Origin: Psilocybe cubensis
Taxonomy: Eukaryota
Length of the DNA: 64,000 nt
Direction of reading: 5' to 3'
Assembly: GCA_017499595.2 (NCBI GenBank)
Contig: CM039008.1
Coordinates: 62,001 to 126,000, forward strand
The notes below the pieces were generated by a model. It did not search any database. It saw only the letters and a program-made list of their open reading frames with translations, and was not told the origin of the DNA. Both the position numbers and the translations under genes were made by a program. How positions within the stretch are numbered: position 1 is the stretch's first letter; each line of letters begins with the position of its first letter. This document shows positions 1-64,000 of this stretch, piece by piece.

Positions 1-20
1 AAGTAAGAGATGCGTTTCTC

Positions 21-19542: not shown

Positions 19543-20616
19543 TATGGCTGTCCGTTTGCACATTTAATACCAATCTATAAACTTTTTTTTCCATACATAG
19601 AAGTCGCAATTATGCACAATTCCATATACATAATCTGGTGTCCAGTATAGAGAAAGGTGGTTTCCGAACATATAAATCTTGTATCCATACATTCATAGGT
19701 TGCACCCTCGGATACAATTTTCAGTACCATACATGTAGTTTTGGTGCCCACATATACAAATCACAATCCCTTACATAGGGCAAACACTCCCTTTTACACA
19801 TATTTTGTTCCCTCACTTATATCTGAAGGTTCCTCGTATGATTATTTCTACCTTTCTTCATCCCGAAGATATACTGTCATTTTTCGGCATTCTGTCGATG
19901 CCGTGCATGCCTAGACATCGTGAGAATCGGCAAATCTCGGCAAATAAGGACACAAATTACAGTTCATTGCCTGTATGCCTGTCGACACACGCTGATTGAA
20001 CACTTCAAAAGATTCACATTTATACAATCAGTAAGTATCCTCCTGTGAATGCTGATTGCATAAGTAGATTGTCTTCATAATGTGATACGAGTGCTTTGCG
20101 TGCTAAGGCTTAAAAAGGCCTAACGTTGAGGTTGAAGACAGAAAATTGCATTGGAATAGCCTATATGTAGTCTTATGTTATTTTAATGTATGAAATTATG
20201 CTCCTAATGAATTGTATAATCTTGTAACGACCATCCTACTGTCTTCACAAGTAGCAATCCACTGCAAAGCGGGACAAAAGTCGAGTTCCCACGCCTCTAC
20301 GGCACGGACGGCACGCATAATGTTCTTCTGGACAACTCTATATCTTCGGACAAAAATTAAGATACATGCGGAGAGGGCCACAGACTATGGTACTGAATTT
20401 TTTATGTACGGGTAGCATACCCTTATGTGTGCAGCTCCCATTCAAACTGAAGGGCATGCAAAGACAATGATCGGGATAATTTCTTCTATGCTCGGAAACC
20501 ATTTCTCTACAACCGGGACACCAAGGTATGTAGTTGAGTTCAATCAAAATTGCAACTTATATGTATGGGGAAAGAAGTTTATACTTTGGCATTAAATGTG
20601 CAAACGGACAGCCATA
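19543..20616. mobile_element. Non-autonomous TIR DNA transposon (about 1.07 kb), TATGG...CCATA ends, degenerate TIRs of about 200 bp
   Basis: Left end TATGGCTGTCCGTTTGCACATTTAAT is the reverse complement of right end ATTAAATGTGCAAACGGACAGCCATA. Flanked by CTCCC on both sides (19538-19542, 20617-20621). Confidence 0.8.
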
Positions 20617-25000: not shown

Positions 25001-25752
25001 TGATGAGCCGTGGTCGGTTGCGCGCGCGGAAACGTTTCGAACACAAGTCCATTCTCCCACGATATGCCGTGTCACATGTTCAATCTCCGACATTTCGCAA
25101 AGCACCCGCTCTGGCAATATCGCCCACACAAGCTTATCGTCGTGCACATAGAATGTTCAAGAAACAGTATTCCCCACCTATTCTCCCTTTTTATTGGCCT
25201 AGACTCGCGTACTGCACTGTTGAGTCAGCTATCGGCATCTTGGCACCGTTTCCCACGACTTTGATCGGACACTGACACCTCTTGACCTCCTCATCCTCCT
25301 GAGAAAACCAAGCGCCAAACACTCATTTCCTTTTCGTTCCACTTGAAACTTTGATATACCATTTCGTTCCATATGCTACGCCTTCTAGAATTTTTATACA
25401 TTTTTCTTGGCTGTTTCAGAGTTGCTATGGCTAGATTACTATAAATTCAGGTGTAGTAGCTAGCTAGAAGAAAAACAACCCATTGGTTCGCTCCCCTCTT
25501 CTCGTTTACCATCTGATATTCATAACCTCTCGTATATATCGTTTCGCGCTCGAATTTCGTGTCGTTATCTCGCCCCAGAGTGGTTCGAAGTCCTTGAGTG
25601 GCTTACACTCAGTTACTAGTCAAATTGTGGTTAGAGGTCTTTGTGGAAGCGCATCTCGCCATTACGCACCTTCTACGAAGTGTTGGGTGTTTCCCAGTGG
25701 TCTCAACTTCTTTTGGTTCTGCTCCGCACCTCACACGCTCGTAGGCGTATCA
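25001..25752 (+). repeat. 5' LTR of element 2
   Basis: Direct repeat of 32355-33106, TG...CA ends, TATA-like CTATAAAT near 25439. Confidence 0.97.
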
Positions 25753-25755
25753 TTT

Positions 25756-25773
25756 TGGAGCCCACCGCGAGGG
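25756..25773 (+). promoter_or_regulatory. Primer-binding site of element 2
   Basis: TGGAGCCCACCGCGAGGG begins 3 nt after the LTR; its complement has the layout of a tRNA 3' end (CTCGC-GGTGGGC-T-CCA). Confidence 0.75.
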
Positions 25774-26080
25774 TGCTTCAATAACCATTGCAGCTTCAAC
25801 CACAGCCCGTATTACTCGCTCACAAACGCTACGAGACGAGCTCATCTCGGCGTTCCAAAACCCCGACGATCTTACCGACGACTCTTTCTTTGTTGAGGTA
25901 CCCGACGTCGACGCTACACACAACAATCTCCCTATCCTCACTTCCCCTCTCTTCACTTCTTCTCAATTGCCCTCGCCACTTCATTCTCCATCGTCTTCGG
26001 TATCGTCCATTACTGCTTATTTTTCTGCACTCAATATCAACCCCAACATCTCCGTAACATCACCATCACCTCCAACCACC

Positions 26081-28351
26081 ATGACCACTCGAATGCCTGC
26101 TCGTGGCGATCGCAGTGCGCCCACCTTCGACCACACTAAGCCTAGAGAGCTCAAGCGATACTTCTCCGAGCTGGAGTTCCTATTCTCAGCTGCAGCAGTC
26201 ACCTTGGATGCGGAGAAAAAGCAACACACCACTCGTTATGTCAGTATTGAGGTCGCAGACATATGGGAAACCTTGCCAGAGTTCTCAGACCCCACCAAGA
26301 CTTATGTGGACTTCAAGAAAGCCATTCAAGAGCTCTACCCAGCTGCGGACGAAGAATATAGGTACACTATGGCGGACATGGATTTGTTAATTGGAAATCG
26401 TCAGCGCTTAGGCATTCACTCACTCGGAGACCTAGCCGACTACCATTCGCAATTTCTGGCAATCACCAAATTCCTTATTTCGCGTCAACGCCTCTCAGAG
26501 ATTGAGCAAAAGCGTGCTTACATACGTGGTTTTCCTCCAGAGCTTTGGGCGAAGGTATCTCAACGTCTACAGCTCAAATTCCTTGACCATCTCCCCGACG
26601 AACCCTATGATATCTCAGACGTGCAAGCTGCAGCTCGTTTTGTGCTTCATGGCACACATTCTATCGCTTCTTCGCTTCCAGCAACCTCTGCAGGCTCGTC
26701 TCCAGCAATAGTCCCATTGGAAGGCATCGTCAAGACGGAGCAGCTTGGGTCTATCTTTACAGAGTTCACCAAGTCGATTCTTGAGGCTATCAATGCAACT
26801 TCACAACGCTCACGCTTCCCTGCGTCTTCTGATGCGACTCCTCGCGATGTGAAGTGTAATTTCTGTGGTCGGGATCACTATATTCGCAATTGCGAGTTAG
26901 TGGACGAATATATTCGTGCTGGCAAGGCTAAGCGCAATATTGAGGGAAAGGTAGTCTTACCTACAGGTGCTTTCGTTCCACGCGAGATTACTGGGTCTCT
27001 GTTGAAAGAGCGCATTGATGAATGGCACAGACGCAATCCTGGACAGCTAGCGGCAGCCACAGTCTCGTCCAACATGCTTGGCGCAGTTCAGTGCAGTCCC
27101 AATGCTTCCAGTGCGTTGTCTCCACATCAAGCGGCTTATCAGTTCACAGCTGATGACCGCATCGCGCTGCTTGAAGCAGAACTCTTTAGTCTTCGTGCAC
27201 GGCGCCCTGACTTCTCTCCTACTGTTCGCACCCGTGCCCAGAAGATACGCGACATGGAGCAGGCCGCAAACAATGAAGCGCTGCGTGCGGATGCAGCTGG
27301 TACTCGTCCTAACCCGCCAGCATCAACACCGGATCCCCAAGAGTCTCAGAACGTTTCCAAGTCCACAAATCAAGCTGTTCCACCTCCTCCTCCATCTCAG
27401 CCTGAAGAAGAGCCAGAACACCCGTTTCGCAACGCCCGAGATGCAAATTATTTGCCACCGCTTCATCGCAACCTTGCTGCGCAACCAAAAACCGTTCCAA
27501 AGAAGGCAGAGCCCGCGTACCGCACCGCTGCACCAATACAAGATGCAGAAGTCGTTTCTACCGTCTATAACCGCTCCCTTGATGCTCCAGTTACGCTCAC
27601 GCAGCGGGAATTGCTCTCAATTGCCCCAGACGTTCGTGCACATTACAAAGATGCGACTACTGCCAAGCGCACACCTACCACCGACTCTACACTCCAAACA
27701 AACATATTAGAGGGTCAACACATGCAACAGCGTACTCAAAAGGCTTACCAGTCCATGCCAGTCGCCGTTGCTCTCGCAGCAAGCCAACATCGCAGTCCTC
27801 CTGAAGGTGCAACCATTGTAGACGATCCTTTTGAGCAGTACTATCGCTCGCTGCGTCCAGGAGAAGAGCCCGATCCGACTCGACTTGCTGTTGCTAAGGA
27901 ATCTGCGGCGCTTCGTTCTATTTTTCCCATCGTAGACAACAACCTTAAGGTTGAATGCATCTTGGATCCCGGGAGCCAAATCATTGCAATGTCCGAGGAA
28001 GTCTGCCACGCGCTGTCTCTTATTTATGACCCCACAATCACGCTCAATATGCAGTCTGCAAATGGAACAGTTGATAAGTCATTAGGTCTCGCACGCAATG
28101 TCCCTTTCCGCATTGGGGATCTCACCTTGTATATGCAAGTTCACGTTATTCGTGCGCCTGCGTACGATATCTTGCTTGGCAGACCGTTTGACATCTTGAC
28201 TGAGAGTGTTGTGCGCAATTTCCGCAATGAAGACCAGACAATTACTGTAGCAGACCCCAACTCGGGTCAGGTAGTCACTATACCCACTGTACCAAGAGGA
28301 CCACCACGCTTTGCCTGTCGCCACTCGGATTTTCACGGAACGAGGATCTAG
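26081..28351 (+). CDS. gag: Gag-protease polyprotein of element 2
   Basis: Zinc knuckle CNFCGRDHYIRNC and aspartic protease ILDPGSQI...ILLGRPF. First ATG at 26081; the ORF is open from 25967. Confidence 0.93.
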   Translation: MTTRMPARGDRSAPTFDHTKPRELKRYFSELEFLFSAAAVTLDAEKKQHTTRYVSIEVADIWETLPEFSDPTKTYVDFKKAIQELYPAADEEYRYTMADMDLLIGNRQRLGIHSLGDLADYHSQFLAITKFLISRQRLSEIEQKRAYIRGFPPELWAKVSQRLQLKFLDHLPDEPYDISDVQAAARFVLHGTHSIASSLPATSAGSSPAIVPLEGIVKTEQLGSIFTEFTKSILEAINATSQRSRFPASSDATPRDVKCNFCGRDHYIRNCELVDEYIRAGKAKRNIEGKVVLPTGAFVPREITGSLLKERIDEWHRRNPGQLAAATVSSNMLGAVQCSPNASSALSPHQAAYQFTADDRIALLEAELFSLRARRPDFSPTVRTRAQKIRDMEQAANNEALRADAAGTRPNPPASTPDPQESQNVSKSTNQAVPPPPPSQPEEEPEHPFRNARDANYLPPLHRNLAAQPKTVPKKAEPAYRTAAPIQDAEVVSTVYNRSLDAPVTLTQRELLSIAPDVRAHYKDATTAKRTPTTDSTLQTNILEGQHMQQRTQKAYQSMPVAVALAASQHRSPPEGATIVDDPFEQYYRSLRPGEEPDPTRLAVAKESAALRSIFPIVDNNLKVECILDPGSQIIAMSEEVCHALSLIYDPTITLNMQSANGTVDKSLGLARNVPFRIGDLTLYMQVHVIRAPAYDILLGRPFDILTESVVRNFRNEDQTITVADPNSGQVVTIPTVPRGPPRFACRHSDFHGTRI

Positions 28352-28353
28352 GA

Positions 28354-31300
28354 GTGTCTGCCAACCTCATAGCACTCAGGATACGCATCAAGGAAGGGCA
28401 TATATTTCTTGAAGCGGTAGAACCTCTAGAGTCCTCGGATATTATCTCAGTTTCGTATTTTTCAGCCTGTGATCTTGATATTCCCCCAATCTCTTCTGTC
28501 CTCAATTCCACAACCACTCAATCCTCTTCTATTTTGTTTACATCAGCTCTATCCAACCTCTGTCCAGCTAACATTCCTAACATGCCCACTCAATCCTTCC
28601 CATTGTGCTTTAATCTTCAACATTCATTACCTTTCCCATTAGAATCCGCTTCCTCAAATCTAGACCCCACTCCAGCAATATTTGCCGCCACCAAGAAGAA
28701 GTATAAGCCAGTATCAAAGAAGACGCGACCTATTTATGGAGAGCTTCCGGAGAAGTATCAAATTATCCGCAATATTATTGGAGATCCTCTCGCCTCCTTA
28801 CCATCCCTGAGCACCACACCTCCTCCATTTCAACCTATTGGGCGCTATACCGACGAGCGCATGAAGCTAGTTGATGCAGCACACTCTTCAAGCTTCCTGT
28901 GGCCGGCCGAGCGCGACCTCTTGCACCACTTCATGATGCTACATCAAGATGGCTTCGCATGGAATGATACCGAGCGTGGTCATTTCCGAGAAGACTTCTT
29001 TCCGCCCGTGGAAATTCCAGTCATTCCGCACAAACCCTGGATAGTCCGCAATCGACCCATTCCCCCTGGCATCTATGACGAGCTCTGTCGCCTTCTGCAG
29101 AAGAAGCTCGATGCGGGAGTGCTTCAAAGATCTTGTGCGTCGTACCGAGGCGGCTGGTTTGCAGTTGTCAAGAAGGATGGGAAGTCTTTACGTATTGTGC
29201 AATCACTGGAGCCGCTCAACGCAGTCACCATTGCGCATTCGGGTGTTACTCCATTCACTGAACAGATTGCAGAGCAATTTGCAGCACTAGCATGCGTTGG
29301 ACTATTGGATTTGTTTGTTGGATATGACGAGCGCGCCCTAGCAGAGTCTTCACGAGACTACACCACATTCCAAACGCCTTTCGGACCCCTTCGCCTCACT
29401 ACACTCCCTATGGGGTGGACTAACTCTGTCCCTATATTCCACGACGACGTCACATACATTTTGCAGCCAGAAATTCCTCACACCACTGTCCCATATATCG
29501 ACGACGTCCCCATCAAAGGCCCACGTTCCCGCTATATACTTCCCTCTGGCAACTTTGAAACTATCCCGGAAAATTCTGGAATACGACGCTTCGTTTGGGA
29601 GCACTTCCAAGGTCTTAATCGCGTAGTGCAACGCATGAAATACAGCGGAGGCACTTTCTCTGGCCCCAAATCGATTCTCTGTGCATCTGAAGTCACCATT
29701 CTAGGCCATCGATGCACATACGAAGGCCGTCTCCCGGATTTATCACGCGTCGCCGCTATTTCGAACTGGGGGCCATGCAAGGACCTTTCTGATGTCCGTT
29801 CCTTCCTTGGTACCATTGGAGTCTGCCGATTATTCATCCGTAACTTCGCACATCGAGCCCATCATCTCGTCAAGCTCACACGCAAAGGCCAGGACTTCGA
29901 GTGGACTCAAAATCAAGAACGCGCGCAGCAGGATCTTAAGGAGGCATTGTTAAAGTCACCTGCACTTCGTCCCATCGATTACACCTCCCCTGCACCTGTC
30001 ATCGTCTCGGTTGACACTTCCACCATCGCAGTAGGTCACATCCTTGCTCAGTGCGACCCCAGCAACCCGCGCATTCGATATTTCGCCCGTTTCGGATCCA
30101 TAACGCTTAACGAACGCGAGGCGCGTTATTCGCAACCCAAACTCGAGCTGTACGGATTATTTCGTGCACTTCGCGCACTCAAACTGTATATTTTGGGTGT
30201 TCGCAACCTCGTAGTCGAGGTAGATGCGAAGTACATCAAAGGAATGTTGTCAAACCCCGATATTGCACCCTCAGCAACTATAAATCGATGGATATGTGCT
30301 ATACTCATGTTCCACTTTGAACTAGTGCACGTACCAGGCGTTCTACACGGTCCAGATGGTCTTTCACGACGCAAGCCACAGCCTGGAGATGCACCCGAGC
30401 CTGAGGACGACTTTGAAGACTGGATCGACGAAATGCACGGTTTTATGCACATCTTAAACCCCATCCTTCCCGCCGCCTTGATACAGCCTCACATTGTAAT
30501 CTTTGCTACTTCCACTACAGTTGAACCAGCCCCACCCATTCAGGAGTCTAGTGACTCGGCTCCATCGCCTCCCGTTACTCCCAAGCCCTCGTACTCCATT
30601 ATTCCACGCTCTGAACTCGCCCACAAAGCTGACAACCGCCTCTTTCAAGTCCGTATATGGCACCAAACCCTACAACGTCCTGCCGACATGTCTGATAGTG
30701 AATATGCGTCTTTTATGCGATACTGCACCGAGTTCTTCATCTCTGCTGACCGCCTGTGGCGGAAGGATGCCAATGGAAGACACAAGGTCGTTGTATTCGC
30801 TGAGAAGCGCTTATTTATTATTACAGCTGCGCATGATGATGTGGGACACCATGGGTATTATGCAACACATTCTCTGATTGCTGAACGCTTCTGGTGGCCA
30901 TTCATGGGCTTTGACATTGGCTGGTTCGTTCGCACATGCCATATTTGCCAACTTCGACGCACTCATGACATTCTCATCCCTCCCACTGTCGCTATACCCG
31001 CACCACTCTTCTCCAAAGCGTATATGGACACGCTGCACCTCCCTCCGTCGGGTGGCTTCAAATATCTTATCCAAGCTCGTTGTTCAGTTTGCCACTTCCC
31101 TGAATACTGCCCACTTCGACGCGAGATTGCACAAACGATTGGCGAATGGATTATGCGTGATTTAGTATTCAGATACGGACCTCTAGTGGAGATTGTGACG
31201 GATAACGGCCCCCCAATCGTCAAAGCGATAGAGTACATTGCTAAACGATATCACATCTATCACATTCGCGTCTCAGGCTACAATTCGCGTGCCAATGGAA

Positions 31301-32031
31301 TCGTGGAGCGTGCACACTTTGACGTGCGGCAGGCTATCTTCAAGGTGACGGACGGCGATATATCTTTATGGAAACAGTTTATACACTTCGTCTTTTGGGC
31401 AGAACGTGTAACCGCAAGGCGTCGCATGGGATGTTCGCCATATTTCGCTCTCACGGGCACTCAACCACTCATTCCTCTTGATATCAGCGAAGCAACCTAC
31501 CTTCTTCCGCCTCCCGAATCGGTTCTCTCCACCACTGAACTCATTGCTCGTCGTGCACTCGCTCTTTCGAAACGGCAAGAAGACCTCCAACGCCTCTACT
31601 CTAAGGTGTATGAAGCACGTCGCAAGGCTGCTGTGCGCTTTGAAAGAGAGCATGCCCACCAGATCCGTAGCTATGAATTCAAGCTCGGTGATCTTGTCCT
31701 CATCCGCAACACACGCATTGCAAAGTCACTCAATCGCAAGATGCGCACGCGATATTTAGGTCCTCTTATCGTCATCTCTCGCAATCGAGGTGGAGCTTAT
31801 ATTCTGTCCGAGCTCGACGGCACACTTCTTGATCGGCCTATTGCTGCATTCCGAGTTATTCCATATTTTGCTCGTCGAACTTTGGACTTGCCGCCTCTTG
31901 ATGAATTACTCGATGTTTCGCAGCACCGCCTACATGAGCTTGAGGATACTTCAGCGCCCGACCCTGAGGACGTTGAGGACGTTGAGGATGTTGATGCCGA
32001 CGAAGAAGACCCAGAGGAAGAGGAAGAGTAA
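28354..32031 (+). CDS. pol: Pol (RT, RNase H, integrase) of element 2, in the -1 frame relative to gag-pro
   Basis: LPMGWTNS, YIDD, SVDTS, DGLSR, AHDDVGH...CHIC, MDT...TDNG...VERAH; acidic tail and no recognisable chromodomain. Confidence 0.96.
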   Translation: MSANLIALRIRIKEGHIFLEAVEPLESSDIISVSYFSACDLDIPPISSVLNSTTTQSSSILFTSALSNLCPANIPNMPTQSFPLCFNLQHSLPFPLESASSNLDPTPAIFAATKKKYKPVSKKTRPIYGELPEKYQIIRNIIGDPLASLPSLSTTPPPFQPIGRYTDERMKLVDAAHSSSFLWPAERDLLHHFMMLHQDGFAWNDTERGHFREDFFPPVEIPVIPHKPWIVRNRPIPPGIYDELCRLLQKKLDAGVLQRSCASYRGGWFAVVKKDGKSLRIVQSLEPLNAVTIAHSGVTPFTEQIAEQFAALACVGLLDLFVGYDERALAESSRDYTTFQTPFGPLRLTTLPMGWTNSVPIFHDDVTYILQPEIPHTTVPYIDDVPIKGPRSRYILPSGNFETIPENSGIRRFVWEHFQGLNRVVQRMKYSGGTFSGPKSILCASEVTILGHRCTYEGRLPDLSRVAAISNWGPCKDLSDVRSFLGTIGVCRLFIRNFAHRAHHLVKLTRKGQDFEWTQNQERAQQDLKEALLKSPALRPIDYTSPAPVIVSVDTSTIAVGHILAQCDPSNPRIRYFARFGSITLNEREARYSQPKLELYGLFRALRALKLYILGVRNLVVEVDAKYIKGMLSNPDIAPSATINRWICAILMFHFELVHVPGVLHGPDGLSRRKPQPGDAPEPEDDFEDWIDEMHGFMHILNPILPAALIQPHIVIFATSTTVEPAPPIQESSDSAPSPPVTPKPSYSIIPRSELAHKADNRLFQVRIWHQTLQRPADMSDSEYASFMRYCTEFFISADRLWRKDANGRHKVVVFAEKRLFIITAAHDDVGHHGYYATHSLIAERFWWPFMGFDIGWFVRTCHICQLRRTHDILIPPTVAIPAPLFSKAYMDTLHLPPSGGFKYLIQARCSVCHFPEYCPLRREIAQTIGEWIMRDLVFRYGPLVEIVTDNGPPIVKAIEYIAKRYHIYHIRVSGYNSRANGIVERAHFDVRQAIFKVTDGDISLWKQFIHFVFWAERVTARRRMGCSPYFALTGTQPLIPLDISEATYLLPPPESVLSTTELIARRALALSKRQEDLQRLYSKVYEARRKAAVRFEREHAHQIRSYEFKLGDLVLIRNTRIAKSLNRKMRTRYLGPLIVISRNRGGAYILSELDGTLLDRPIAAFRVIPYFARRTLDLPPLDELLDVSQHRLHELEDTSAPDPEDVEDVEDVDADEEDPEEEEE

Positions 32032-34330: not shown

Positions 34331-37300
34331 GCAGTACCTTCGTCTTTCCGAGCTCGCTACAACACCGCCTCTTCATCGCTCTCGCTCTCGCTCTCGTTCC
34401 CGTCCTCCTACTCGCATACCCCCATCGTTGTTCGTCGTCAAACACCTCCCACACTCACTCGTCCAGTGCCTGAAAAAGAAAATGTCGCCATAGAGTCGCT
34501 TACACGTATCACAACGACCACGCGGTGCGTTTCTGACACAATCCGCGAATTCGAGATTAGTTGCAGAAACACGTGTCGCGCCTGTAGAACATTTATCAGC
34601 AGTTCTTAGCGAAGCAGAATGACTTTGGGACTCGAAAGGTTAGAAATCAAGGTGGAGTGTGCGGTTGGCGGCGAGGACGAGGACGAAGATGAGGACAAGG
34701 GATGTCATGAGATTGGTTGAGAAATTGTGGAGGAGGATACTCAAGGTGAGTGGTTCGCGTTTGACTTTCTACGCTCTGGCGCATGGAAATTCAAGAATCC
34801 ACAACACATTCCCCATTTCCCTCTCTATCTACACACCTACGATGACCCAGCCCTGGAATTCAAGTATTTCTCTCGACAACAAGCATCACCGCATACATAA
34901 TGAAATGCAGTACATCGCCGACAGACTTTCAACATCAAGCAACAACCGTCCAGCCATGATCCACATGCCAATCAGGAGGCTCAGCGAATCCTCGCGCTGC
35001 GTTCTTCCCACCAACATGCCCACGAACGCGACATGCAATGCGGACAATGGTGCGTCCTCGCATCCCTTCAGGTTCCCGCCCACCTCCACCTCCACCACAA
35101 CCTCTCCCTCACCACTCGCACTCTCACCCCCATTCGATCCCTCCGTTACAGGCAAACATGTTTCCACCTGACGCCTCCCTCTTAAACCTCCGCGCCATCA
35201 ATGAATTTGACGACAACGCGACAGTCAGTAACGTTGGGATGGGTGGATGGGTGGACGGCGTGAGTGGGGTAGGGTATGAACTTATGAGTCAACACTGGGA
35301 CCTGGGGCAGTGTGCAGAGGGACGTAAGCGTACTCCCGGACGCTGAGATCTGCCTCGTTTCTGCTCAGACTACACACTACATCTCCGAATCATGTTCTTT
35401 GTTAGTCTTTGAATCCCCGGGGTATATTTGCTCTCGCTGCTGAATGGCACCTCAAGTGGCTGTCACTTAAATTTTACGTCGTCATTAATTCTGCTGATCA
35501 AATGCAGATGGATCCAGCTATGAATACCCCTTGCGCTCGAAACTAGGACAATGTGCCTAACAGGCTAAAATGCTTTCAGACTACCACACCCTTTCACGTA
35601 TACAAAGCTCAGTGATATGAAAAATTAAGAAGAAAATGAATAATACAATCTAGCCACACGGCTGAATGCACAATCAATATTTATTAATATTACTCTACAA
35701 ATACTACTTCTGCAGTCTTTAACAATGACCCATTTGGCAGTATGATTTGCTTGGTTCCCATCTGACATGAGAATGAGGGATATGACGGTGGTTTGAACTC
35801 CTTGTCTGAATCGTTGATTGCATTTTGACGAACAGCAGTGTATGCAGGGATCCATTCTGGAAAGGTGTTGCAAGGATTAGGAGTTGGTACATATCCTCAG
35901 TTCATTCGGGGCAAAAGCCCCATAATACAACCACAATGAGGCTGTCGGCAGATGTTTGGTTAGCAAGCTGCAAGCTGAAGCATGAAACATGGCGCATGAA
36001 ATTCCTTACAGATAATGTCCTCAAAGCTCATTGATCAAGGGTGGATGACGATGTTCACGCTTGTCGGTTGCATCCTGTATACAAACATCAACATGAATCA
36101 GAAGTCTGGGTAGTAAGCTGGACGGTCTCATAGATGACATACCTGTCAATGCTGGAGAGTAGCTATAGACAGATAACGAATTGCAGTGCAGCGGTACTGC
36201 GAGCGATATGTATGGATGGATTTCTGCAGGAGCAAGCATTGTGCGCGTTTCGTTGAGCATCTGGGATGAAGAGTAGACGACTCGACTCGACGTAGATTGG
36301 TCGTCTTTATCCGTAACATTTGACATCTTCATCTGCTTATCATAATGCTCGCAAGAATATCTTTTCACAGGCATAAAAACTCCTTATTGTTTGTGCACCA
36401 TATGGTGTGATTATTGATACCATGACACTTCTCACACCATGCCTTCTCCGGCTACAATGACTCGCGCCGGCACAGAACTACGGATTTCCAGGACAATAAC
36501 TATGTATTTGATCACTGCAGATACACCTGTCCTTGCTGCAGCAGTATCGGGCTCCATACAAAAATCCGGGACGCTGAATGAATCATGCATCTGAGATTGC
36601 GTGAGCGCGGTTGGGGTGATGAGAGGTGTTGATGAGCGTCGATTGAGGAATTATGGATAATGAGAGGTAGACATCTCAGTGTAGTGATTCGCTTTCCCCT
36701 TCCCCTCGTTATCTACACTTCCCAACAGCGCATGACACGGAAACTCACAGGGTCCCAATATACCTCGCGGTGTAACACAACGCTCACATAACTCCGCAAC
36801 CAAAGTCCTACTCAACTCACACGTCCCAACACCCCCTCTTCCCCATCTGCTGCGTCCTTCCCTCGCTGATACATGTTGATTGTATGTAACGAGAGTCGCA
36901 CAGTCTTGATTTTCATCCTTTCGCCTCCGTGTCCGTCTCGTTTTTGGGTTTGAAGTTGGATAGTTGGCTGGTGGGTTTGGCAAGGATCATGTTGTAAGGG
37001 GAGAGAGTGCGTGAGTGAGTGATCGTCAGTAAGTGGATAATCCTCCTTCTCCTGTGTGTATGTACGTCACAAATTGTGGTTCTTGTTGGAATCGCAGTCA
37101 TCCGTTCTTCCAATGCGAATTCAAAGCCACTTGCGATGAAATCAGTACATGCCGGTGTGACAAACGCGCTACCTTGATTCCGAACTCTCGTCTCGTCTTC
37201 GTCTTCGTGCAGAATGAACAAACCACGCCCAACACTGCGAACAAACCCTTATAAAACAAGAAAGACAACGTAACTGTCAGATATTTTTTCACACACATAT

Positions 37301-37424
37301 ATCAAATGACCTGCGATATCGATCGACGTCACAAATTGGACACAATAGAGATGAGAGCATTCAAAGACATTGTGCATAAAATTACAAGTTGCAATATATA
37401 ATACAGTGCCTTCTTCGCACAGCA

Positions 37425-38716
37425 TGGACTCATCGGGAATTGAACCTGACACCTTTCGCAGTCCATAAATGCAAAGCGAGCGTGATAACCAACTACACCA
37501 TAAGTATGGAAAGCCGGAAGAGCGAGGTGCCCAGACACAAACCAAACATCGTCTGGCAGAGATGCCGAGTGATCGCTAGGCAACTCACAATCCCGCTGTG
37601 GCTGAACGACTTCCGACACCCTGCACCGAGTGCACTATACAAATATCTATATTCCGTCGCATACTGTAGGTGTTACCTGCCCTGGTAGGTAATCTGGATA
37701 CACATAATTATTACATGTAATCTAGTACACAATAGCAAACACAATTTTACTGGCATGGCAGGCAATTGCTGCGAAGCCGCCGTTTGAAGTTATTTTTCGC
37801 ACTATTATTTACTAGCTATGGCCTGTAAGAAAGGGTTTTTGCATCAGTTACAAGTTTTTCTTGCCCCCGCTGTGACGTAAGTAACAATATTGACACCGAG
37901 AGTAACAGCGGTTCCGTAGCCTTCATTTATATTGTAGAAATAAGGTGTTCAAAAGAAATAGACAAAGAAAGAGATAACAGGGTTAATTGAGAAATACATG
38001 AAGGTATAGTATAAGTCAGTTTCAAGAAATAGGAAAATAGAGTAAAGAAAATGAGCTAAAGGACTGGGTGTGTCGGGTGGATGGAACAAAGGTGAAGTCC
38101 ACAGAAAAGTAAATTAAAGATAAGATAAAAGGAAGATAATCGGCGGTGTGGGAAACAGTCAGTTTTCTACAGGCTCACATCAAGGCTCACATCTTCAGCT
38201 CAAGGTCTCAACGACGTCGAGCTTAGACCACTCACCGCGCTCTATCACCTGCCCTAGATCTCCTCTTTCTCCTTTCCTCTCATGTCCATTTCGTCCGTTG
38301 CCCATGAACAGCCGTCCCGCCGTGCTGAGCGCATACCAAAGTTTGGTTTGGGTCTGATGGGTGAGTATAAGCACTCTGGATCTTTTTACAAGCAGTTTAC
38401 CTGTCCTAGTTCACTTCCTCTTATGTCATCAATGTGCTAGCCAAGGCCCAAACACCGCGGTCATTTTAGTCATGCAAAATATTGAATTTATTGCCTTTCT
38501 TACAGGCCATAACTAAATAATAGATGGCGAAAAATAACGTACCTAAAGTATGTGACGGAATATAGATATTTGTATAGTGCACTCGGTGCAGGGTGTCGGA
38601 AGTCGTTCAGCCATAGCGGGATTGTGAGTTGCCTAACGATCACTCGGCATCTCTGCCGGACGATGTTTGGCTTGTGGCTGGGCACCTCGCTCTTCCGGCT
38701 TTCCATACATAAGCCC
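37425..38716 (-). pseudogene. tRNA-Ala(TGC) gene with a short intron, split by a TIR element
   Basis: Body at 37425-37504 (A box TGGTGTAGTTGG, anticodon arm CTCGC-TTTGCA, B box GGTTCAATTCC, 3' TGAGTCCA). The missing 5' GGG lies at 38714-38716. Removing the insert restores GGGCTTA/TGAGTCC with G3:U70. Confidence 0.88.
37505..38707. mobile_element. Non-autonomous TIR DNA transposon (about 1.2 kb), TIRs of about 167 bp, TATGG...CCATA ends, 6-bp duplication CATAAG
   Basis: 37505-37671 is the near-perfect reverse complement of 38541-38707. CATAAG lies at 37499-37504 and 38708-38713; an alternative reading is GTATGG...CCATAC with a 4-bp ATAA duplication. Confidence 0.92.
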
Positions 38717-38899
38717 AGTAAATCCAATTTCTGCGTGGCTGGTCTCCAGAGCGTCATCAGACGGAGAAGAGCAACGACATAGTTCATACAATTTACAAGT
38801 GTGATAACAACCAAAGTTTGAGGTTCTGAATCAATGGTGAAGAAAAACGTGTTTTGTGGATGTGAACATGAGCATATATGAATCAAAATGAATGCAAAA

Positions 38900-38988
38900 T
38901 GGACGCATTGGGAATTGAACCCAACACCTCTCGCAAAGTCATCCAATTGATGCTAAGCGAGCGTGATAACCAACTACACCATGTGCCC
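38900..38988 (-). tRNA. tRNA-Ala(AGC) with an intron of about 15 nt
   Basis: GGGCACATGGTGTAGTTGGTTATCACGCTCGCTTAGCA[intron]TGCGAGAGGTGTTGGGTTCAATTCCCAATGCGTCCA, G3:U70 pair, followed by a TTTT Pol III terminator; one A-C mismatch in the acceptor stem. Confidence 0.9.
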
Positions 38989-39369
38989 TATACACTTGAC
39001 GCGCGCCTATGGCGTCTCAGCGGGCGGATAAGTATCAAAGAACGGTGTAACGCAAGTCACTCCAGTCTAGACAGGTTCATTCAGGTATACCGTTGATGTG
39101 GTACTCAATACGAGTGCAACCGTGTCTGGACTTGATCGGCTGGGTTCATAACGGTTAGCGCCCATATCCATATATAGGTTTGTCCTTTGACATTCAATTC
39201 GGAAAAATAATTTCAGAGATATTCGCATCGTAGTATGACAATGCAAAAATGCAAGTTGAACACGTCACGATGCTCCGTATCCATTTCGACAATGACATGG
39301 AGAAAAAAGTGCAGAGGGAATATCGAGACGCATGACGTCGTCGTAAGCTGTCGCGGTGCGTGCACGCCA

Positions 39370-51379: not shown

Positions 51380-52172
51380 ACTAGCTACCAAGGAAGCTAC
51401 AATTGCCCTTTAGTTGTTGCTTTGACAATCCCAATAATGAATGCGTTATCAAGGAATGGTGATAATGTGGACACATTAACATCGTTTTTATTGATTAAAG
51501 TTCACCGAACAATATTGGTTGATCATGTTACCATGACTTACCAGTATGTCAATTCTGATGTATGCGAACGTCAGTGATTGGATAGTGGAAACAACATTAT
51601 ATACTTGTTAAACTCACCACATGTCCTATACCATGCTAGATGTGAAATTTATGCTGAAGTATGCCCGCAAAGAGCACGCTACCTCAATGACGCTGCACGT
51701 ATTTCAATGACATGCACGCGCAAGGTTTGACAACTTGCACGCAAACTCATAAGAAAGTCGCGCAAATTTAATTGAATGCCATTTATGCGTGCCACGCAAA
51801 AATAGGTCGCACGCGGGCAAGCCACGCTCTTTTCCTGGTGCCCGTGTTGAAGTCTATAATTGTTCTATCGGTTGCAAAGTACATCGCGACTGCAGCATGC
51901 TCGGAAACGCCAGGGAATTGTCAACCGGTTAGCTGTGATTGGTCAGGAATATTTTTTTTCCACGGAACTGCGATTCTGCGCCTCGAGGTTAGTTCAGAAC
52001 ACACAAAAACGGGCAGCCCTGAATGTGTACCTGCGAGCTGGTGGGAAACGCGTGTTTAGCTGGGATTTATGAACCCATTCCGACGGACGAAGTAAACTTT
52101 CCACTTTCCTAACAACATAACCAGCCTTCGCATAAGTTGCTTCTTTATTTTTCCCATTCTTGCTACCGCAAA

Positions 52173-53525
52173 ATGCAGAACGCCAACGTCGTCAGCTTTT
52201 CCCCAATTAATAGCGAACACTTTGCTATCCCTACACTGTCAACGTCTATATCATGGGACAGTGCCTGGTCAAACCTGAATTTCTATTCAGAAGGCCGCTA
52301 TACAGGCGTCCCTTTAGACACAGTCCAGACGGCGTCAAATATCCAAATGTTCCCGAGTGTTGCATCAAGCTATGCCAGTGAGGAGGCTTCCCAGGACACA
52401 TCGGCCTCCACCCATCACGCTCCCTTGGGGTCTGAGAGCTTGTCGTACCCAGGATTTGTACCGCAAGGAACTCAAGAACTATTTGACAATCATCACTTGA
52501 GCGAGGAAGACAATGTGTCTATCAACGGTCAGACCAATAACACAACACTTGACGTATCGTCTCCTGAGTTATTACCTACCAATAACATCTACCCAGATAC
52601 CCATGTTTCTGTGTTGGTCGGTCATGAAGGGTCTGAGGATACCACATATCCAACCAATACACCGAACGAACTCACATTAGCTTCGGACACTGTGTCCCAG
52701 AGTGACCCCATAGACAGCCTACTTTCGTATGTCCTGTCCACAGGAACAATCGATCCTGCTTTGCTGGCGAAATCAATGCCATCATCACATAGCAAGCGTG
52801 AACAGGATATACCGCAAAGTCAGGTGGGCGACACATTGTTCAGTAGAAATGAGAACAACAGGGGGACATGCAGTGGGGTATACAAGCCAGTCCGCAGCGC
52901 GGTCGACGATCAAGATATGCGTGCAAACAGTTTCCGTCATGGGTATGGAGAGACGGAAACGTCGAAAAATGATACGTTCCAGCACCAGGAACCACACCTA
53001 GAGTATCGCTCCAGGGCCACACCTGTTGAGCAGATACCCACCATGGAATCTGAACCTCATGATGCTCGAAGGTATGTTTCGGCCTTCCGTTTCTCGATAT
53101 CATAATACTGAAACCACTGTAATGCAAGGGAGCCTATTCGGCTTGCTCAGAGCCGAGATACGGAAGAATCCAGAGTTCAGTGTCATGAAAGTGGTCATAG
53201 GTATGTGTATATGTATGCCTGCAGTTGAAATGAATCTCTAACATACAGATGGGTTGATGTTAGAGAAACTAGACCGGCAAGAAGAGAAAAACGCACTCGG
53301 TCACGGAGTCCTACTGAAGAAACACAAGACCGATTGCCAAAGCGCCGCAAAAATCTTGAAAGTGTGCAGGAGAACAACTCAAGAGGGAGGGAAAGAATGA
53401 ACAGCAATCCTGGCTGTGAGGCTCCCACCAAGAAAAAGGGCATACAAGGTCATAGGAGCGATTATGATGATACATTCCGTTCGCGGCAGGAGATAACTTC
53501 CAGTTCTTCTATCCGAGGTCGTTAG
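52173..53525 (+). CDS. Orphan gene C, copy 2 (3 exons, disordered, basic C-terminus)
   Basis: Long exon 52173-53071, then about 53129-53200 and 53249-53525. Motifs GTIDPALL, LPKRRK and QGHRSDYDDTFRSRQEI; paralog at 24517-33527. Confidence 0.7.
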
Positions 53526-54174: not shown

Positions 54175-55113
54175 TTACTTCTGGGTGATAATATGGCGGA
54201 GATTCCAAGTCGTTACGCCATAGTACATTCCTTCTGTCTCCACCACAACTCCGCTCTTTGATTTGCTGTAAATGGTGAAAGGGATATCCAGGGTAGATTG
54301 GGTAACACTGGAGGTAGCAACAACAGTGGAATGGGGAGGAGCTGTGACAGGGAATGTGGCCTTGTAAGCTTTGGACTTCTTCGTCGTTGAACCCCAGGTA
54401 AAATTGGACGTGCTGGTTGCGTCCACTTTAATCGACCCTTCTGAAACCAAAGGGACTCCCGTTTTTATCTCCAACCCCACCGTGAGACTGAACCCCTGCG
54501 AAAATTGGAATGATGATGTCTCTTCGGTGCTCGTGTCGACGGAGGCTTCCAGTTTTTGGACGATGCTGGTGTCGTTTTTGAGCTCCTGTGTGGCGAGCAC
54601 CACCGGGGTGGACTGCACGATTTTGCCTTGATCGACGTGATATACAACACGGTCAATTTCCGTGTGCTCAAAGGTAAAACTGAAGTATTGAGTTACGTCC
54701 TTGGGGTTTCCTTCAGGGACACTTGTTAATAAGGAAACGGCCGAGGACCAGACAGCGGAGATGGAAGGGCAAACTACGCGAAAGCCAGACGAGAGATGCT
54801 CTGTTCCGACTTCAAATGTGAACCAGTTCTCGTCATGGACGCCGTCTCCAGCGGTATGTTCGACAAGAGCATGTGTGCCCTTCTTCGATAACAGTACTTT
54901 TCCAGAGTATGTGCCTCTTATAGCGTATTGGCCAGCACGATCGCCAGTACCATGGATAAGTTCGAAATTACAGTCACGTTCCGGTTCCGTAGACCCCATG
55001 GTTAGCCCTACTTTAGGATCTTTGCTGTCGTTAGAGTAGACTGGGTTTGGCAGTAAAAACGAGCTACAGATTGAAAAGTAAAATTTTGGAGGAGGTATAA
55101 ACAGGTCTGGCAT
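54175..55113 (-). CDS. LSL-like hemolytic lectin: N-terminal beta-trefoil plus C-terminal aerolysin-type pore-forming domain, 312 aa
   Basis: MPDLFIPPPKFYF...LIHGTGDRAGQYAI...GKVL...GDG...NWF...QYFSFTFE...STPVVLATQEL...GVP...ATFPVTA...EGMYYGVTTWNLRH follows, from memory, the Laetiporus sulphureus lectin along its length. The ATG at 55155 in the ORF track falls in an intron. Confidence 0.9.
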   Translation of the reverse strand: MPDLFIPPPKFYFSICSSFLLPNPVYSNDSKDPKVGLTMGSTEPERDCNFELIHGTGDRAGQYAIRGTYSGKVLLSKKGTHALVEHTAGDGVHDENWFTFEVGTEHLSSGFRVVCPSISAVWSSAVSLLTSVPEGNPKDVTQYFSFTFEHTEIDRVVYHVDQGKIVQSTPVVLATQELKNDTSIVQKLEASVDTSTEETSSFQFSQGFSLTVGLEIKTGVPLVSEGSIKVDATSTSNFTWGSTTKKSKAYKATFPVTAPPHSTVVATSSVTQSTLDIPFTIYSKSKSGVVVETEGMYYGVTTWNLRHIITQK

Positions 55114-55440
55114 TGTGACGTTATCCTTTCGTGAAGAACAAACCATTGTCAGCATATGTAACGCCTGTTAAAGATAAACAGCTTACAAATTGACTGCAAA
55201 GAAAGGCAAACGGATATGTCGATGATTACAATAATCGAGCTTCTATATGATGCCGGTTGGAAATGTACCAAAGGAAACCTTACAATCTTGGAAAGTTAGA
55301 AGATGGCCGAATGGAGGGGAAAATAAGTCAGAAAACATTTAAAGTGCATGCAAAGTCATCTTACAATCTCGGAAGCCGCCCACCAAATGAGAGGAGGAAT
55401 CGATGATGGGATGAGAGTTGCTCTGGCGTTGGTTTACCTT

Positions 55441-58929: not shown

Positions 58930-61900
58930 ATGGGCTTGGAGGCAGCGGAGCTCGCACGGTGGACACGGTTCGCAGCCAAGGGTGGGATCGGAAAGTGCAT
59001 CGCGTTGTGTGACTGTGTCGCCGAGAGCCCGGACGATCTTATGTTCTTGAAGGTGCGTAATCACCTCCCATCTTTTCCCCGTTTCGTGGAGGGGCATTTG
59101 AAGGCCCTGTTGTGGAACCACTCTTTCATACTGCCGTGGTAATGTTGTCGCGGTAGCGCCTCCTTGGAGCCATCAACATAACAATCTTCACGGTCAACGC
59201 CTCCTTATACTGCATGTTTTGCGATTGGAGGATGGAGCTGACAAAACGGCTTCTAGGACGATGAAATCACGGTGTTGTATCAGATACCAGAGCTTGAGGG
59301 GACGTACCTCGTAAGTGCATTCACTGCTTCCATTTTTTTTTCGCACCATTCCAAATTTTGTTGTATTTGGAATTTTATCCACAAACATACCAATCCCCCG
59401 CCTACCTCATTGCATAACGAGTTGACCACTGACTACTACTTTTTCTTTTTCCTGTTCTTCCTTTCTTTCTGCTGTTACTACTCTAACCACACCCACGGCC
59501 ACGCGACATCCTAAACACCAACATTTCGAACCCCTATCCACCACACAGGGCTACTGCGAAGGCGTAGTCGGCCGCTTTTCTGGCTCGAACGTTCATTTCC
59601 TCACGCGACTCAAGCGTCCTGTCATGACCAAGCGCGCGAGCGTTGCCAGTGTGTCTGCAGCCTCTTCTGCGGGGGGAAAGAGCCCGACACCTGGAGGTGG
59701 TGCGGCTGGAGGAGCATCGGGATCAGGTCGAATGAGTGCAAGCCCCGCACCTCCGCCAGGACAAGGACAGGGTCCAAGTCCGAGTCCTGGTTCATCACAG
59801 CAAAGACGTAGCTCCAGCTCTGCTTCCAACCCGTACTCGCATTCCCTAGAAAGACGTGGGTCGACGTCAGCGTATGGTTCAACGCCGCGGGTTATGTCGC
59901 CCCTTTCCATGTCTATGTCAACGTCAGCATCGGGACCTGGATCAAGTTTGGGTGGCGCAGGGGAAAAGGATATAGAGAGGGAGAGGGGCATAGAGACGCG
60001 CGAGGGTAACCAGCATCAGCAACAGCCACGAAAAGCGAGTGCGGGGTCTGTATCTTCCTCAAGCATGGTTGACAGTCCATCTACCAATGCACCAGGCGTA
60101 AATATTGCATACCCAGACTTTTCTGCGCCTCCGCCTCCTGCGCGCGTTGGTGTGCGGAATTTGGCTGTCACTGGCATGAGCCCGCCGACGAGTCCACGTG
60201 CGGGGATAGCGAGTTTTGGGTCAATGGGTGCGTTTAGTTCATCGCCTCCACACGCGTCATCATCAGATCCCACACCCACACCCGCATCAGCACCTTCGAC
60301 CAGTGTACCCATTTCCTCTTCTTCCGCATCGATATCGACATCCGCATCGAGCTCGACCTCTTCAACACCTACATCGACGTCCACATCGCCGACACCATCA
60401 CCCGCATCTGCGCTCTCGCTTACGGCCACAAGCGCGTGGCCGCTCCCACCTAGTGCGACGCGGCATGGCGGTGGGTTGCAGAGTGTCGGTATGAGTATGA
60501 ACTTGGAGCACGCGATGGGGAGGGAGGCTGGACAAGTGTCGGATTCGGATTGGCGTACGCAAGGTCAGCAACAACACCCTCCAAGTACGCAGCGATACAC
60601 CGCACATGCGCCGTCGCCTCTTAACCTCCATCCCAATTCACACTCGGTAGAACCTGGTGGGACCTCGCCGTTGAGGATTCTGAAGCGATCGCCGACGATT
60701 GGTGGGTCTTTTTCGCCTTCTCCTGGACTGTCTCCTGGGTTGTCGCCCGGTGTGTCGATGTCTCCGGCGCTTGCGTCGTCGTATGGATCTGGCACTGGTG
60801 GTGGCGTCGGTGCGGGTGTTGGGGGCGTAGCGCCTCTATCTCCCACCTCACAGAATGCAAACGCGAACCCGCCACCATCTGCAGCATCGCTGACATCCTT
60901 CATATCCGCGTCGTCTGCGAGCGTGTATTCGCGGAGTTCGGGGCCTGAGGGTGTAGATGAAGGGAGTGTTTATTCGCAGGACGACGGCGACGAAGGGGAT
61001 GACGGTGAGCGGACACAGTTGGGTCATGGTCGTGTTTCCGACACGGTCCATGGACAAGGTGGTGGTATACGCGGTGGCTTGGGTGGGTTGGACGCGTTGG
61101 CTGCGTTGGATACCAAGGAACTTGGGACTGGAAATGGTGCTGGAGCAACTGGAGGAGGGCAAGGCGGTGTGGGCGATATCGGGATGAGCCTCCTCGACGG
61201 GCTCAACGCGTTTTCCGACTCGGATTCGGATGGGGACTCGGAGACGTCGTCTGTCGCGTCGTTGCGTCGGAAAACGCGGAATCGAGGGGCCGTTGGTGGT
61301 GGTGATGTCGAGGAAGATGATGATAGGAGTGTTTACGGGAATGGAAGTGAGGAAGGAACCGTTGAGGGTTTGGGATACGCACTTTCTCTGGATGGACACG
61401 GGCAGTCTATGTCCTCCAATACAACTTCCACAACCGCGATACCCGCGACCGTCCACGAATCGCGCAACGAAGCTGCGGAGGAAGACGATGATGGAGAAGG
61501 CCAAGAAATTCTCGCTCCGCTTCCGGCGCATACAGGAACGCTTCCGCTCTCTCCACGCTCGCCAAAGTCGCCTCGATCGCCCGCGTTCTCGGTAAGAAGT
61601 CTTCATTCGCTGCAAGGTTCAGGAAGACCTCCACCTCCAAATGCACCGAGTGCTTCGGGAGTCGTACCTCCTCCAACAATACCAACGCGCGAACGTACGT
61701 CTTCTCATGCGTCTCTTGCGCCGTCCGTGCACTCCTCTATGTCCGCGCTGTCCGGCGCGTCGTCTGTGCGGTCAGGTAAAGCTGATAGCCAGCGCTCGAG
61801 CTCTGACTGGGATGGTGCTGCGGATATTTATGATGATTATCGGTATTCGAGATATTCAAGATATTCAAGATATTCGAGGTATTCTGTTGGGACTGTTGGG

Positions 61901-64000
61901 AGTGGGAGTGGGGGGATGGGGAGCGAGGAGATGCCCGCTGTGCCAAGAGAGAGGAGCGATTCGTCGGGTATGGGTGTTGGTGGTGGTAGTGGGATACCAG
62001 GCTCAGGGTTGAGACACGAAGAGCGGATGGATGACGAGGACGAGGCGGTGGTGGAAGATGATAAGATTGCAGATGCACATGACGACACCCCGCGCAAGCG
62101 CAACACGCTCTCACAGACACGTGATACTGCGCATATGAGGACGGCGTCGGTCGACTCGGACGCGTCGGTGTATACGCAGAACAGTAGATTGTCGGCGGCG
62201 TCTGTTGTGATGGCTATGGAGGCTGCGTTGGGTGTTGGTGCTGCCGAGGAGAAGAATGGAAAGCCGGCACATGCGAGGCCGGCGCCGTTGACGCTTGTCA
62301 AGTCGAATTCGTACGATAACGCTGGACTTGACACTGCGACTGCGACTGCGAAGGATCAAAATACAGCAGGAAATGGGGAAGCGGTGCGTTCGCCGCTGCT
62401 GAACACGACATGGGGATCACCGCTGTCGTCGCCTGACTATGCGTCCGTTACGTCGCCGAAGAGCAGCGCGGCGCTGTACACGCCTGTACCAGGGAGCGTG
62501 AACGTGCACCGGGTGGACGAGGGCGAGGGTATGGGTGATGATGATGAGAGAGAAAGAGCGGGTGTGCGGAGCCCCGCTGCGATGGTCTCGCCTACGCTCG
62601 GTGGGTTCGCGAGTCAGATGCGCATGCGCCTTGAGGAGGAGCGGCGGTCGCCTCTGCCGAAAGCAGACGATGCGGAGGAGAGCACTGTTCAGCTGGAGAG
62701 GGATACGGATAGGTCGGGGTTAGGCCATCGGATTGTAGTTGAGGATGAGGACGAGCTGCCGTCTCGTATTTTGAACAGCACTATGTCGTCGTCGGAGGAG
62801 CATGATCACGACCAAGAGCAAGATGGAGATGGGAGTTTGTTGGCGTCTTCATCTGCGGGTAAACACCTTGCGCCGTTGGGCGTTGCCAACCGGACGCCGT
62901 CGCCGTCGATTGGGGAGGGTAACTCGGATATGGACGAAGGTGATGTGAGCACGCTCGAGAGCCGGCTGAAGAGTCTTGAGAGCGAGGATAAGGAGCAGGA
63001 GAAAAGCAAGGGCACGGATACTCCGCCTCCTGCGACACACCTGCGCCCGTCGTTGAGAGAGCTCAGGGAGGGCGGGATGGTGATCGACCCTGGCACGAAT
63101 CAGCGACGAAGCTTGTTTATGCCCCATCCGAACGCGCCCAAGGCGCCTGTAGGCGTCGAGCCCCAAGGACCGATGTATATTGCCCAGGGACCGCCACAGA
63201 TGCGCGGTGTGCCTCCGCCTGGACATCCACAGCATCCACAGCAGCAGTGGAATGGTCCACATCCACCTCCACATCTTGGCTATGGACCACCTCCACCCCA
63301 ACCGCGCCCACATCTTTTCGCTGTCATCCGAATGGCGCTCTCTCTTCCTCCGGCTCCGCCACGCGGCTCGCAACAGCAACCACAGCAGCAGCAGCGCCCT
63401 GGACCGACGATGCCACTCCGTGGACCTACGATTTATGGGCGCACCGAAGTTGACCTGTCCGCTGCGATGGGCCCCGTGCCGATTGTATGGAGTGTTGAAC
63501 CACCTGGTGCAGGCGGCGCGAGCAAGCCGCCTCCTGGATCTCAACAGCAGCAAATGCAGATGCGGAGCAAGAGTATGGGTCCAGGTGGGCCTCCTCCCCC
63601 TGCGCGTGGTGGTGTTGTCTCGCCACCGCCGTCGACGCCTGCGTCGCCTGTCGGTGGTGCGCCCCCTGGAGGTGTTATACCCCGTGCGAACTTCTTCCCG
63701 AAGGCGCCTGGGCTGCGTCCGCGCTCGAGGAGTTTCTCTGGGTTCAATTATAGTAAAGGAGGGTCGACGCTTGAGGCGGTTGTGCCTGTTATGACAGAGG
63801 GCGAGGGTAGGCGGTGCGTGATTTTTCTTTCGTTTTCTTTCTTATTTCTGTGATTTGTTTCTAATTATGATTTATTGTGGACGTTATACACAGCCGGGAC
63901 ACTACATCTGCCACGCCTGCATCGGACATACTTTCTGCGAACGCGATCAAGCGGTCACTTGTCAAAACGACGAGTCTTTCTGCGCTGCGCTCTGCAGCTG
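58930..64000 (+). CDS. Large protein with N-terminal SH3-like domain and long disordered region; probably a TBC-domain Rab-GAP; continues beyond the window
   Basis: Exons 58930-59052, 59257-59310, 59549 to about 63814, and about 63894 onward join to MGLEAAELARWTRFAAKGGIGKCIALCDCVAESPDDLMFLK-DDEITVL...YL-GYCEGVVGRF (SH3-like). The TBC assignment is from recall of this N-terminus; that domain is not in the window. Confidence 0.8.

Follow-up and report, generated by a model that had tools for sequence, protein, structure and literature searches.

Positions 37425 to 38716 of the window (the whole stretch of DNA analysed, 64,000 nucleotides) raise the question of how a DNA transposon came to lie in the acceptor stem of a tRNA-Ala gene. 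An earlier note, made from the letters of the sequence, had left two answers side by side: a family of elements with terminal inverted repeats (TIRs) that targets tRNA genes, or a chance insertion.

tRNA genes were searched with ARAGORN and with the Rfam tRNA model. ARAGORN with default settings, in which introns are disallowed, gave no tRNAs across the window, and introns had to be allowed. At the gathering score of Rfam, the split gene described below was the only tRNA match in the window. Eight of the 14 listed public runs, from three studies, contain at least half of the sampled words of the stretch. Four public runs were compared over 36900-39300; X11 denotes the raw reads of a related strain. 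Depths in X11 are given as the sum of two orientation columns, at a likeness threshold of 88% or more.

The split tRNA-Ala gene and the inserted element

The following features of the tRNA genes were recorded, with the basis of each in brackets.

37425..37504, minus strand: body of the split tRNA-Ala(UGC), positions 4-73 (Rfam match; stem count; alignment with the neighbour)
38714..38716, minus strand: displaced G1-G3 of the split tRNA-Ala (complement of CCC; the old 5' flank comes next)
38900..38988, minus strand: intact tRNA-Ala(AGC) with a 15-nt intron (ARAGORN with introns allowed; stems and flanks)

The Rfam model matched 37507-37425 with 29.1 bits (gathering score 29), with AUA where GGG is expected, and the acceptor, anticodon and T stems contained pairs marked as non-standard. 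Stem counting of the gene as it stands showed acceptor pairs 1:72 and 2:71 broken and G3:U70 lost. The earlier note had claimed that the 5' end is now ATA from the TIR and that the G3:U70 pair is destroyed, and both the Rfam alignment and the stem count agree with this. The mismatches that it had read in the T and anticodon stems are A51.C63 and C27.A43, present both before and after the insertion. Both Pol III boxes are kept in the body, as had been stated, with the letters of the A-box (positions 8-19) and of the B-box (positions 52-62) intact.

The element and one duplicate were removed by a scripted join of 37504 to 38714, and 7 of 7 acceptor pairs were restored, G3:U70 included. This restoration, together with the complement of 38714-38716, bears out the displacement of G1-G3 by 1.2 kb. 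The rebuilt, pre-insertion gene thus has a complete acceptor stem and both boxes, but it carries the two stem mismatches, and its first TTTT lies 43 nt downstream of the 3' end. Possibly, the gene was already weak before the insertion.

The anticodon of the split gene was read as UGC by alignment with the neighbouring tRNA-Ala(AGC), and its intron as the 9 nt at 37460-37468. In the direct repeats D1 and D2, the halves of the split gene are 86% and 97% alike to the intact neighbour. For the split and for the rebuilt gene, ARAGORN proposed Arg(gcg) with a 7-nt intron, which was rejected as a misplaced intron; Ala(UGC) with a 9-nt intron was preferred because of the 86-97% alignment with the neighbouring Ala(AGC) and because of G3:U70.

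The neighbour lies upstream of the split gene, at 183 bp from 38716, in agreement with the intact tRNA-Ala(AGC) that had been placed about 180 bp away. A TTTT run follows immediately after its 3' end. In both genes, position 38 is followed immediately by the intron, and the D stem has a T13.T22 mismatch.

The inserted element was delimited as follows.

37499..37504: left copy of the target site duplication (TSD), CATAAG (tRNA positions 9-4 on this strand; at the X11 joint the six letters fit both sides)
37505..38707: non-autonomous DNA transposon, 1203 bp, TATGG..CCATA (IS3EU/GingerRoot-type by structural hallmarks)
37505..37671, plus strand: left TIR (inverted repeat I1, 171 nt, 95%; likeness in X11 lost exactly before 37505)
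38541..38707, minus strand: right TIR (inverted repeat and alignment)
38708..38713: right TSD copy, CATAAG (identical to the left copy; X11 joint)

By repeat search and alignment, inverted arms were found at 37501-37671 and 38541-38711, 171 nt long, 95% complementary and separated by 869 nt. This pair is far above chance expectation. It is the sole long inverted pair in 37425-38716 and one of three inverted pairs of at least 30 nt in the whole window. The inverted repeat goes on more weakly, with 38494-38538 against 37789-37834. Directly outside the element proper, the CATAAG at 37499-37504 and that at 38708-38713 form a perfect 6-bp duplication, which on the minus strand corresponds to tRNA positions 4-9. 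The claim that a TIR element of 1.2 kb duplicated these positions was therefore confirmed, with CATAAG present twice and 1203 bp between the copies.

No coding capacity was found in the 1203 bp; the open reading frames (ORFs) that touch the element are short or run into the flanks, and the longest stop-to-stop ORF among them (150 aa) extends into the flank. A Pfam search of 21 short ORFs of the element with E-values up to 1 gave none that reached a family cut-off. Three weak matches (E 0.0045-0.12), all under the cut-offs, were taken as noise. A blastn search of the element against the window returned nothing but the element itself and its own inverted arms. The 16-nt end pattern, searched in the window with up to three mismatches, matched the two true ends and two further places with three mismatches each, which were taken as chance. 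In a metagenome scan, the outermost 24 nt of the inverted repeat had no matches. The 60-aa open frame of the inverted repeat, compared with proteins of 33-105 aa in a collection of 5.8 billion, had too few words in common with any candidate.

Empty site and further copies in public reads

Empty sites in other strains had been proposed as a check, and a precise one was found in X11. There, 25 reads with 12 distinct starts joined 37498 to 38708 and skipped 1209 letters (1203 + 6). The shorter side of this joint reached up to 73 letters, and six letters fit either side. The joint is a precise empty site, from which the element and one duplicate are absent. The empty-site reads extend into the unique 5' flank, the depth of which (42.6) indicates no duplication. 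Since the joint carries no footprint, it represents an allele that was never occupied and not an excision.

Two haplotypes in the X11 sample fit the differences at about half frequency in the flank (16 of 35 reads at 37256 and 17 of 39 at 37269). At 37554, 355 of 385 reads have C, and about 30 reads carry the private T of the window. In the simplest reading, X11 contains one filled and one empty allele, and the insertion, being polymorphic, is fairly recent. The presence or absence of the element could be used to tell strains apart. In the spacer that separates the two tRNA-Ala genes, 15 reads of X11 skip 75 letters at 38783-38857, and differences at about half frequency cluster at 38873-38887. 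Both mark a second haplotype of the spacer, possibly the carrier of the empty site.

The join of tRNA body and inverted repeat could also be an artefact of assembly, in that short-read contigs break within inverted repeats and none of the contigs listed spans the stretch. This we consider exceedingly improbable. Contigs of X1 (36900-37531 and 38681-38923) cross both junctions with 0 differences, X1 being possibly the window's own sample, and the X11 reads with the private T at 37554 also argue for a real filled allele. Furthermore, the duplication of 6 bp is perfect and the tRNA is restored exactly once the element is taken out, both of which are traces of true transposition. A contig of X5 that ends its match exactly at 38708 and continues beyond it was suggestive of an empty site and was not used.

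The copy number was estimated from depth. In X11 the single-copy flank has a depth of 34-42, the bins of the inverted repeats 259-362 and the interior 81-226. The arms are thus at 7-9.5 times the depth of the flank; summed, they amount to about 16 arm-equivalents, or, as a rough figure, eight two-armed copies at a likeness of at least 88%.

Among the loose ends listed for X11, 239 reads match the element from 37505 inward and have unlike letters outside (median 71); the outermost 43 or so bases of the element seem deeper than the rest of the arm, and relatives that share the tip may inflate the 239. These reads fix a family-wide terminus at 37505. A 30-letter plurality consensus of their letters before 37505 has an agreement of 0.44, with mixed flanks that are unlike this tRNA-Ala. 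When placed in the tRNA register, it has 0 of the 3 letters expected at U8, G10 and A14, where the window's own flank has 3 of 3. In X9, a contig of 5.7 kb holds an 85-letter copy of the element end, and its flank is not tRNA-like in that register. A duplication of TA (Tc1/mariner-like) or of 4-5 bp at the borders, which is formally possible, was rejected because the likeness to other copies stops exactly at 37505; with TA, the six-letter repeat would in addition need four extra coincident letters.

Further loose ends were found inside the element, again among those listed: at 37920 (118 reads, agreement 0.95), 37924 (126 reads, 0.98), 38316 (138 reads, 0.85) and 38538 (198 reads, 0.96). Other copies of the family share segments with this one and continue with different interiors. 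The 1203-bp element has the look of a derivative whose interior, compared with that of longer relatives, was deleted or rearranged. Its features are those of a MITE-like deletion derivative, namely TIRs and a TSD, no transposase ORF, a multicopy state, and ends common to longer relatives.

X11 also contains joints between opposite strands at 37837-37896 and 38494-38553 (for instance, 37896 with 38494 in 30 reads) and a 57-letter replacement at 37838-37896. From these, the inverted region of other members is longer or otherwise arranged.

Superfamily of the element

For IS3EU/GingerRoot, the hallmarks given are a usual TSD of 6 bp, TA..TA termini and TIRs longer than 30 bp, and for fungal IS3EU families the terminal pattern TAYGG..CCRTA. 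GingerRoot elements are described with a 6-bp TSD and TIRs of 100-150 bp, and with no apparent nucleotide preference across the 72 elements reported on (PMC6839031). For REP9, 6-bp TSDs without consensus are given for 33 of 36 copies (PMC8232023).

The element at 37505-38707 was compared with these descriptions. Its TSD is 6 bp (CATAAG twice, and the joint of 1203 + 6 letters in X11), its ends agree exactly with TA..TA and with TAYGG..CCRTA (TATGG at 37505, CCATA at 38707), and its TIRs are long (171 nt at 95% complementarity, compared with the >30 bp or 100-150 bp of the descriptions). The multicopy state, the non-autonomous derivatives and insertion sites without an evident sequence rule are further likenesses. 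Unlike autonomous members of the superfamily, which encode an IS3/integrase-like DDE (rve) transposase, this copy is 1.2 kb long and non-coding, and the family is known here without a transposase gene. Also unlike the published cases, it sits in a tRNA gene, for which no report from this superfamily was found in the passages covered. From structural hallmarks only, the element was assigned as a probable non-autonomous IS3EU/GingerRoot-type transposon. New would be such a non-autonomous family, recently mobile enough to be polymorphic, in a basidiomycete-like genome.

A second element with the same ends was present in the window.

19543-20616: second TIR element, 1074 bp, TATGG..CCATA (arms of 133 nt, 77% alike)

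It is flanked by the 5-letter repeat CTCCC and lies in a CCT-rich stretch. ARAGORN, used with and without introns, found no tRNA at 19543-20616. It resembles a non-autonomous IS3EU-like element that is older and belongs to another family, and the genome would therefore host more than one such family.

Other superfamilies make duplications of this length. The terminal consensus of hAT elements is YARNG, from which TATGG differs by one letter, and 6-bp duplications are also named for hAT6, Ginger2 and Polinton. A hAT6 element, a Ginger2/TDD element or a fragment of a Polinton, inserted by chance, could thus be considered. We find this decidedly unlikely, in that the element has TA..TA termini and those of Ginger are TG..CA and those of Polinton AG..TC (PMC6839031), while hAT6 is placed inside an animal hAT lineage. 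The fungal IS3EU pattern is moreover exact at both ends of both elements in the window.

Few DNA transposons have a specific target, and those that do attract interest with a view to directed gene delivery; Dada is a superfamily known to target tRNA and snRNA genes with duplications of 6-7 bp (PMC3706591). The Dada transposase is a DDE enzyme with a DxxH motif and with CCCC and CCHC zinc fingers. A non-autonomous Dada would account for the 6-bp duplication and for the location inside a tRNA-Ala gene with both gene halves beside the element, and Dada proteins are reported from a basidiomycete, Laccaria bicolor (PMC3706591). No TIRs were found in Dada according to the same source, which gives only subterminal inverted repeats of 7-9 bp (PMC3706591); the present element has TIRs of 171 nt. 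The site of Dada-tA is the anticodon loop of tRNA-Ala (TAGCAT; CATGCTAAG) (PMC3706591, PMC8869645) and not positions 4-9. All or most copies of a Dada family lie at one shared target gene and site (PMC3706591), whereas the mixed flanks of the 239 reads in X11 and the one contig flank in X9 indirectly place other copies elsewhere, most of the family's other ends in X11 being without this tRNA as flank. With termini that match the IS3EU signature, the Dada reading is close to refuted and deserves hardly any credence. The doubt expressed in the earlier note, that Dada would not fit an element with long TIRs, was well founded with respect both to the TIRs and to the site.

Targeting, chance and the consequence for the gene

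A staggered 6-bp duplication, inverted ends, an empty allele and multiple copies with other interiors were observed at this locus and in its family. The insertion would have proceeded by a transposase supplied in trans from a longer relative, an enzyme of the integrase-like DDE type to judge from the superfamily. A cut with a 6-bp stagger at positions 4-9 of the tRNA-Ala(UGC) gene, followed by repair, would have duplicated CATAAG.

A bias of such a family to Pol III genes, with the integrase-like transposase drawn by the Pol III machinery or by open chromatin in the manner of Ty3, was considered. An insertion inside one gene of a tandem tRNA-Ala pair is unlikely for a single random event, and the transposases of IS3EU/GingerRoot are related to Gypsy-type integrases (PMC6839031). 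The loose ends in X11 have to be read with the reservation that tRNA-borne copies would appear loose at half of their ends in any case, as would copies inserted into tRNA genes the other way round or into a different tRNA species. The mixed loose ends may therefore contain some tRNA-borne copies, as a minority. The 239 reads at 37505, however, gave a mixed consensus with none of the letters of U8, G10 and A14, and the flank in X9 was not tRNA-like in its register. The depth of the body of the split gene, estimated from X11 bins, is about 136 and that of the intact neighbour about 216-270, and hence no excess of tRNA sequence accompanies the element. The IS3EU-like element at 19543-20616 lies outside a tRNA, and no such preference is reported for GingerRoot or REP9 in the descriptions cited (PMC6839031, PMC8232023). 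Of the papers that name both 'IS3EU' and 'tRNA genes', none deals with targeting to judge from titles and abstract openings.

With the mixed flanks unlike this tRNA and a second element outside a tRNA, targeting of tRNA genes is not supported, and a bias to Pol III genes in general is unlikely. That an IS3EU-type, integrase-like transposase is drawn to Pol III genes with a minority of copies placed in tRNA genes appears less likely still, and we would regard it as highly doubtful. If true, it would be a TIR-bearing DNA transposon with a tRNA bias independent of Dada, acquired by a tethering route like that of Ty3. Elements of the Ty3 type insert in front of the gene, at the point where transcription starts, and leave it intact. 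The present case resembles these Pol III-directed retroelements in a presumed integrase-type enzyme and in the insertion at a Pol III gene; it differs in that a DNA transposon sits inside the mature tRNA sequence and that other copies are not at this tRNA. A bias to Pol III genes in a full census would raise the importance of the locus, which is otherwise small in this respect.

The frequency of a chance hit was estimated. The contig sets total 40-50 million letters, which suggests a genome of about 40-50 million letters. The tRNA genes of a fungus typically number a few hundred, at about 80 bp each, and would then cover a few hundredths of a percent of the genome. With about 8-16 insertions, far fewer than 1 genome in 100 would have a tRNA gene struck. 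Such a strike would be improbable for any single insertion, yet it would be expected somewhere across very many windows.

The X11 data show indirectly that the family has several other copies and that these are mostly bordered, at their outer ends, by sequence that does not resemble this tRNA flank. Of the two answers of the earlier note, chance is thus favoured by the mixed flanks and by the hallmarks of IS3EU, and targeting has lost ground. Other copies distributed without regard to tRNA genes had been named as the finding that would speak for a single chance insertion, and this distribution was found as far as the indirect flank data of X11 and X9 reach. The insertion is most likely a single, recent and untargeted event in a redundant tRNA gene. 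Taken as a whole, the explanation by a derivative of IS3EU/GingerRoot type, inserted without targeting into a tRNA-Ala gene and still polymorphic, is considered likely.

With the A- and B-boxes kept, TFIIIC could bind to the split gene and set the start of transcription within the terminal bases of the inverted repeat. The putative transcript would open with sequence of the inverted repeat and would be a dead chimera, with no 1:72, 2:71 and G3:U70 pairs; it should be neither normally processed nor charged with alanine. The cost of losing the gene should be small, because there are further tRNA-Ala genes, including the one at a distance of 183 bp, and because the split copy already had two stem mismatches and no T-run close to its 3' end. 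The locus is a textbook example of a DNA transposon that disables one redundant tRNA gene.

The 64-kb window is eukaryotic, rich in repeats and poor in genes. ORFs of Ty3/gypsy-type polyproteins with RT-RNase H and integrase zinc-binding domains were found at 3-3704 and 25745-32031, the latter preceded by a gag/aspartyl-protease ORF with DUF4100. On the minus strand, 54178-55167 is an intact ORF of 330 aa with an ETX/MTX2 (aerolysin-like pore-former) domain, and its nearest atlas cluster is the mostly basidiomycete 'hemolytic lectin LSLa family'. The equal-sized ORF at 52113-53102 was rejected as its paralogue (BLASTP E 0.36). A stop-to-stop ORF of 1475 codons at 59426-63853 on the plus strand encodes a low-complexity protein rich in Ser, Pro and Gly with no Pfam family. 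A transposase without a Pfam match was rejected for this ORF on account of its low-complexity, Ser/Pro/Gly-rich composition; a disordered protein of the host is probably encoded here.
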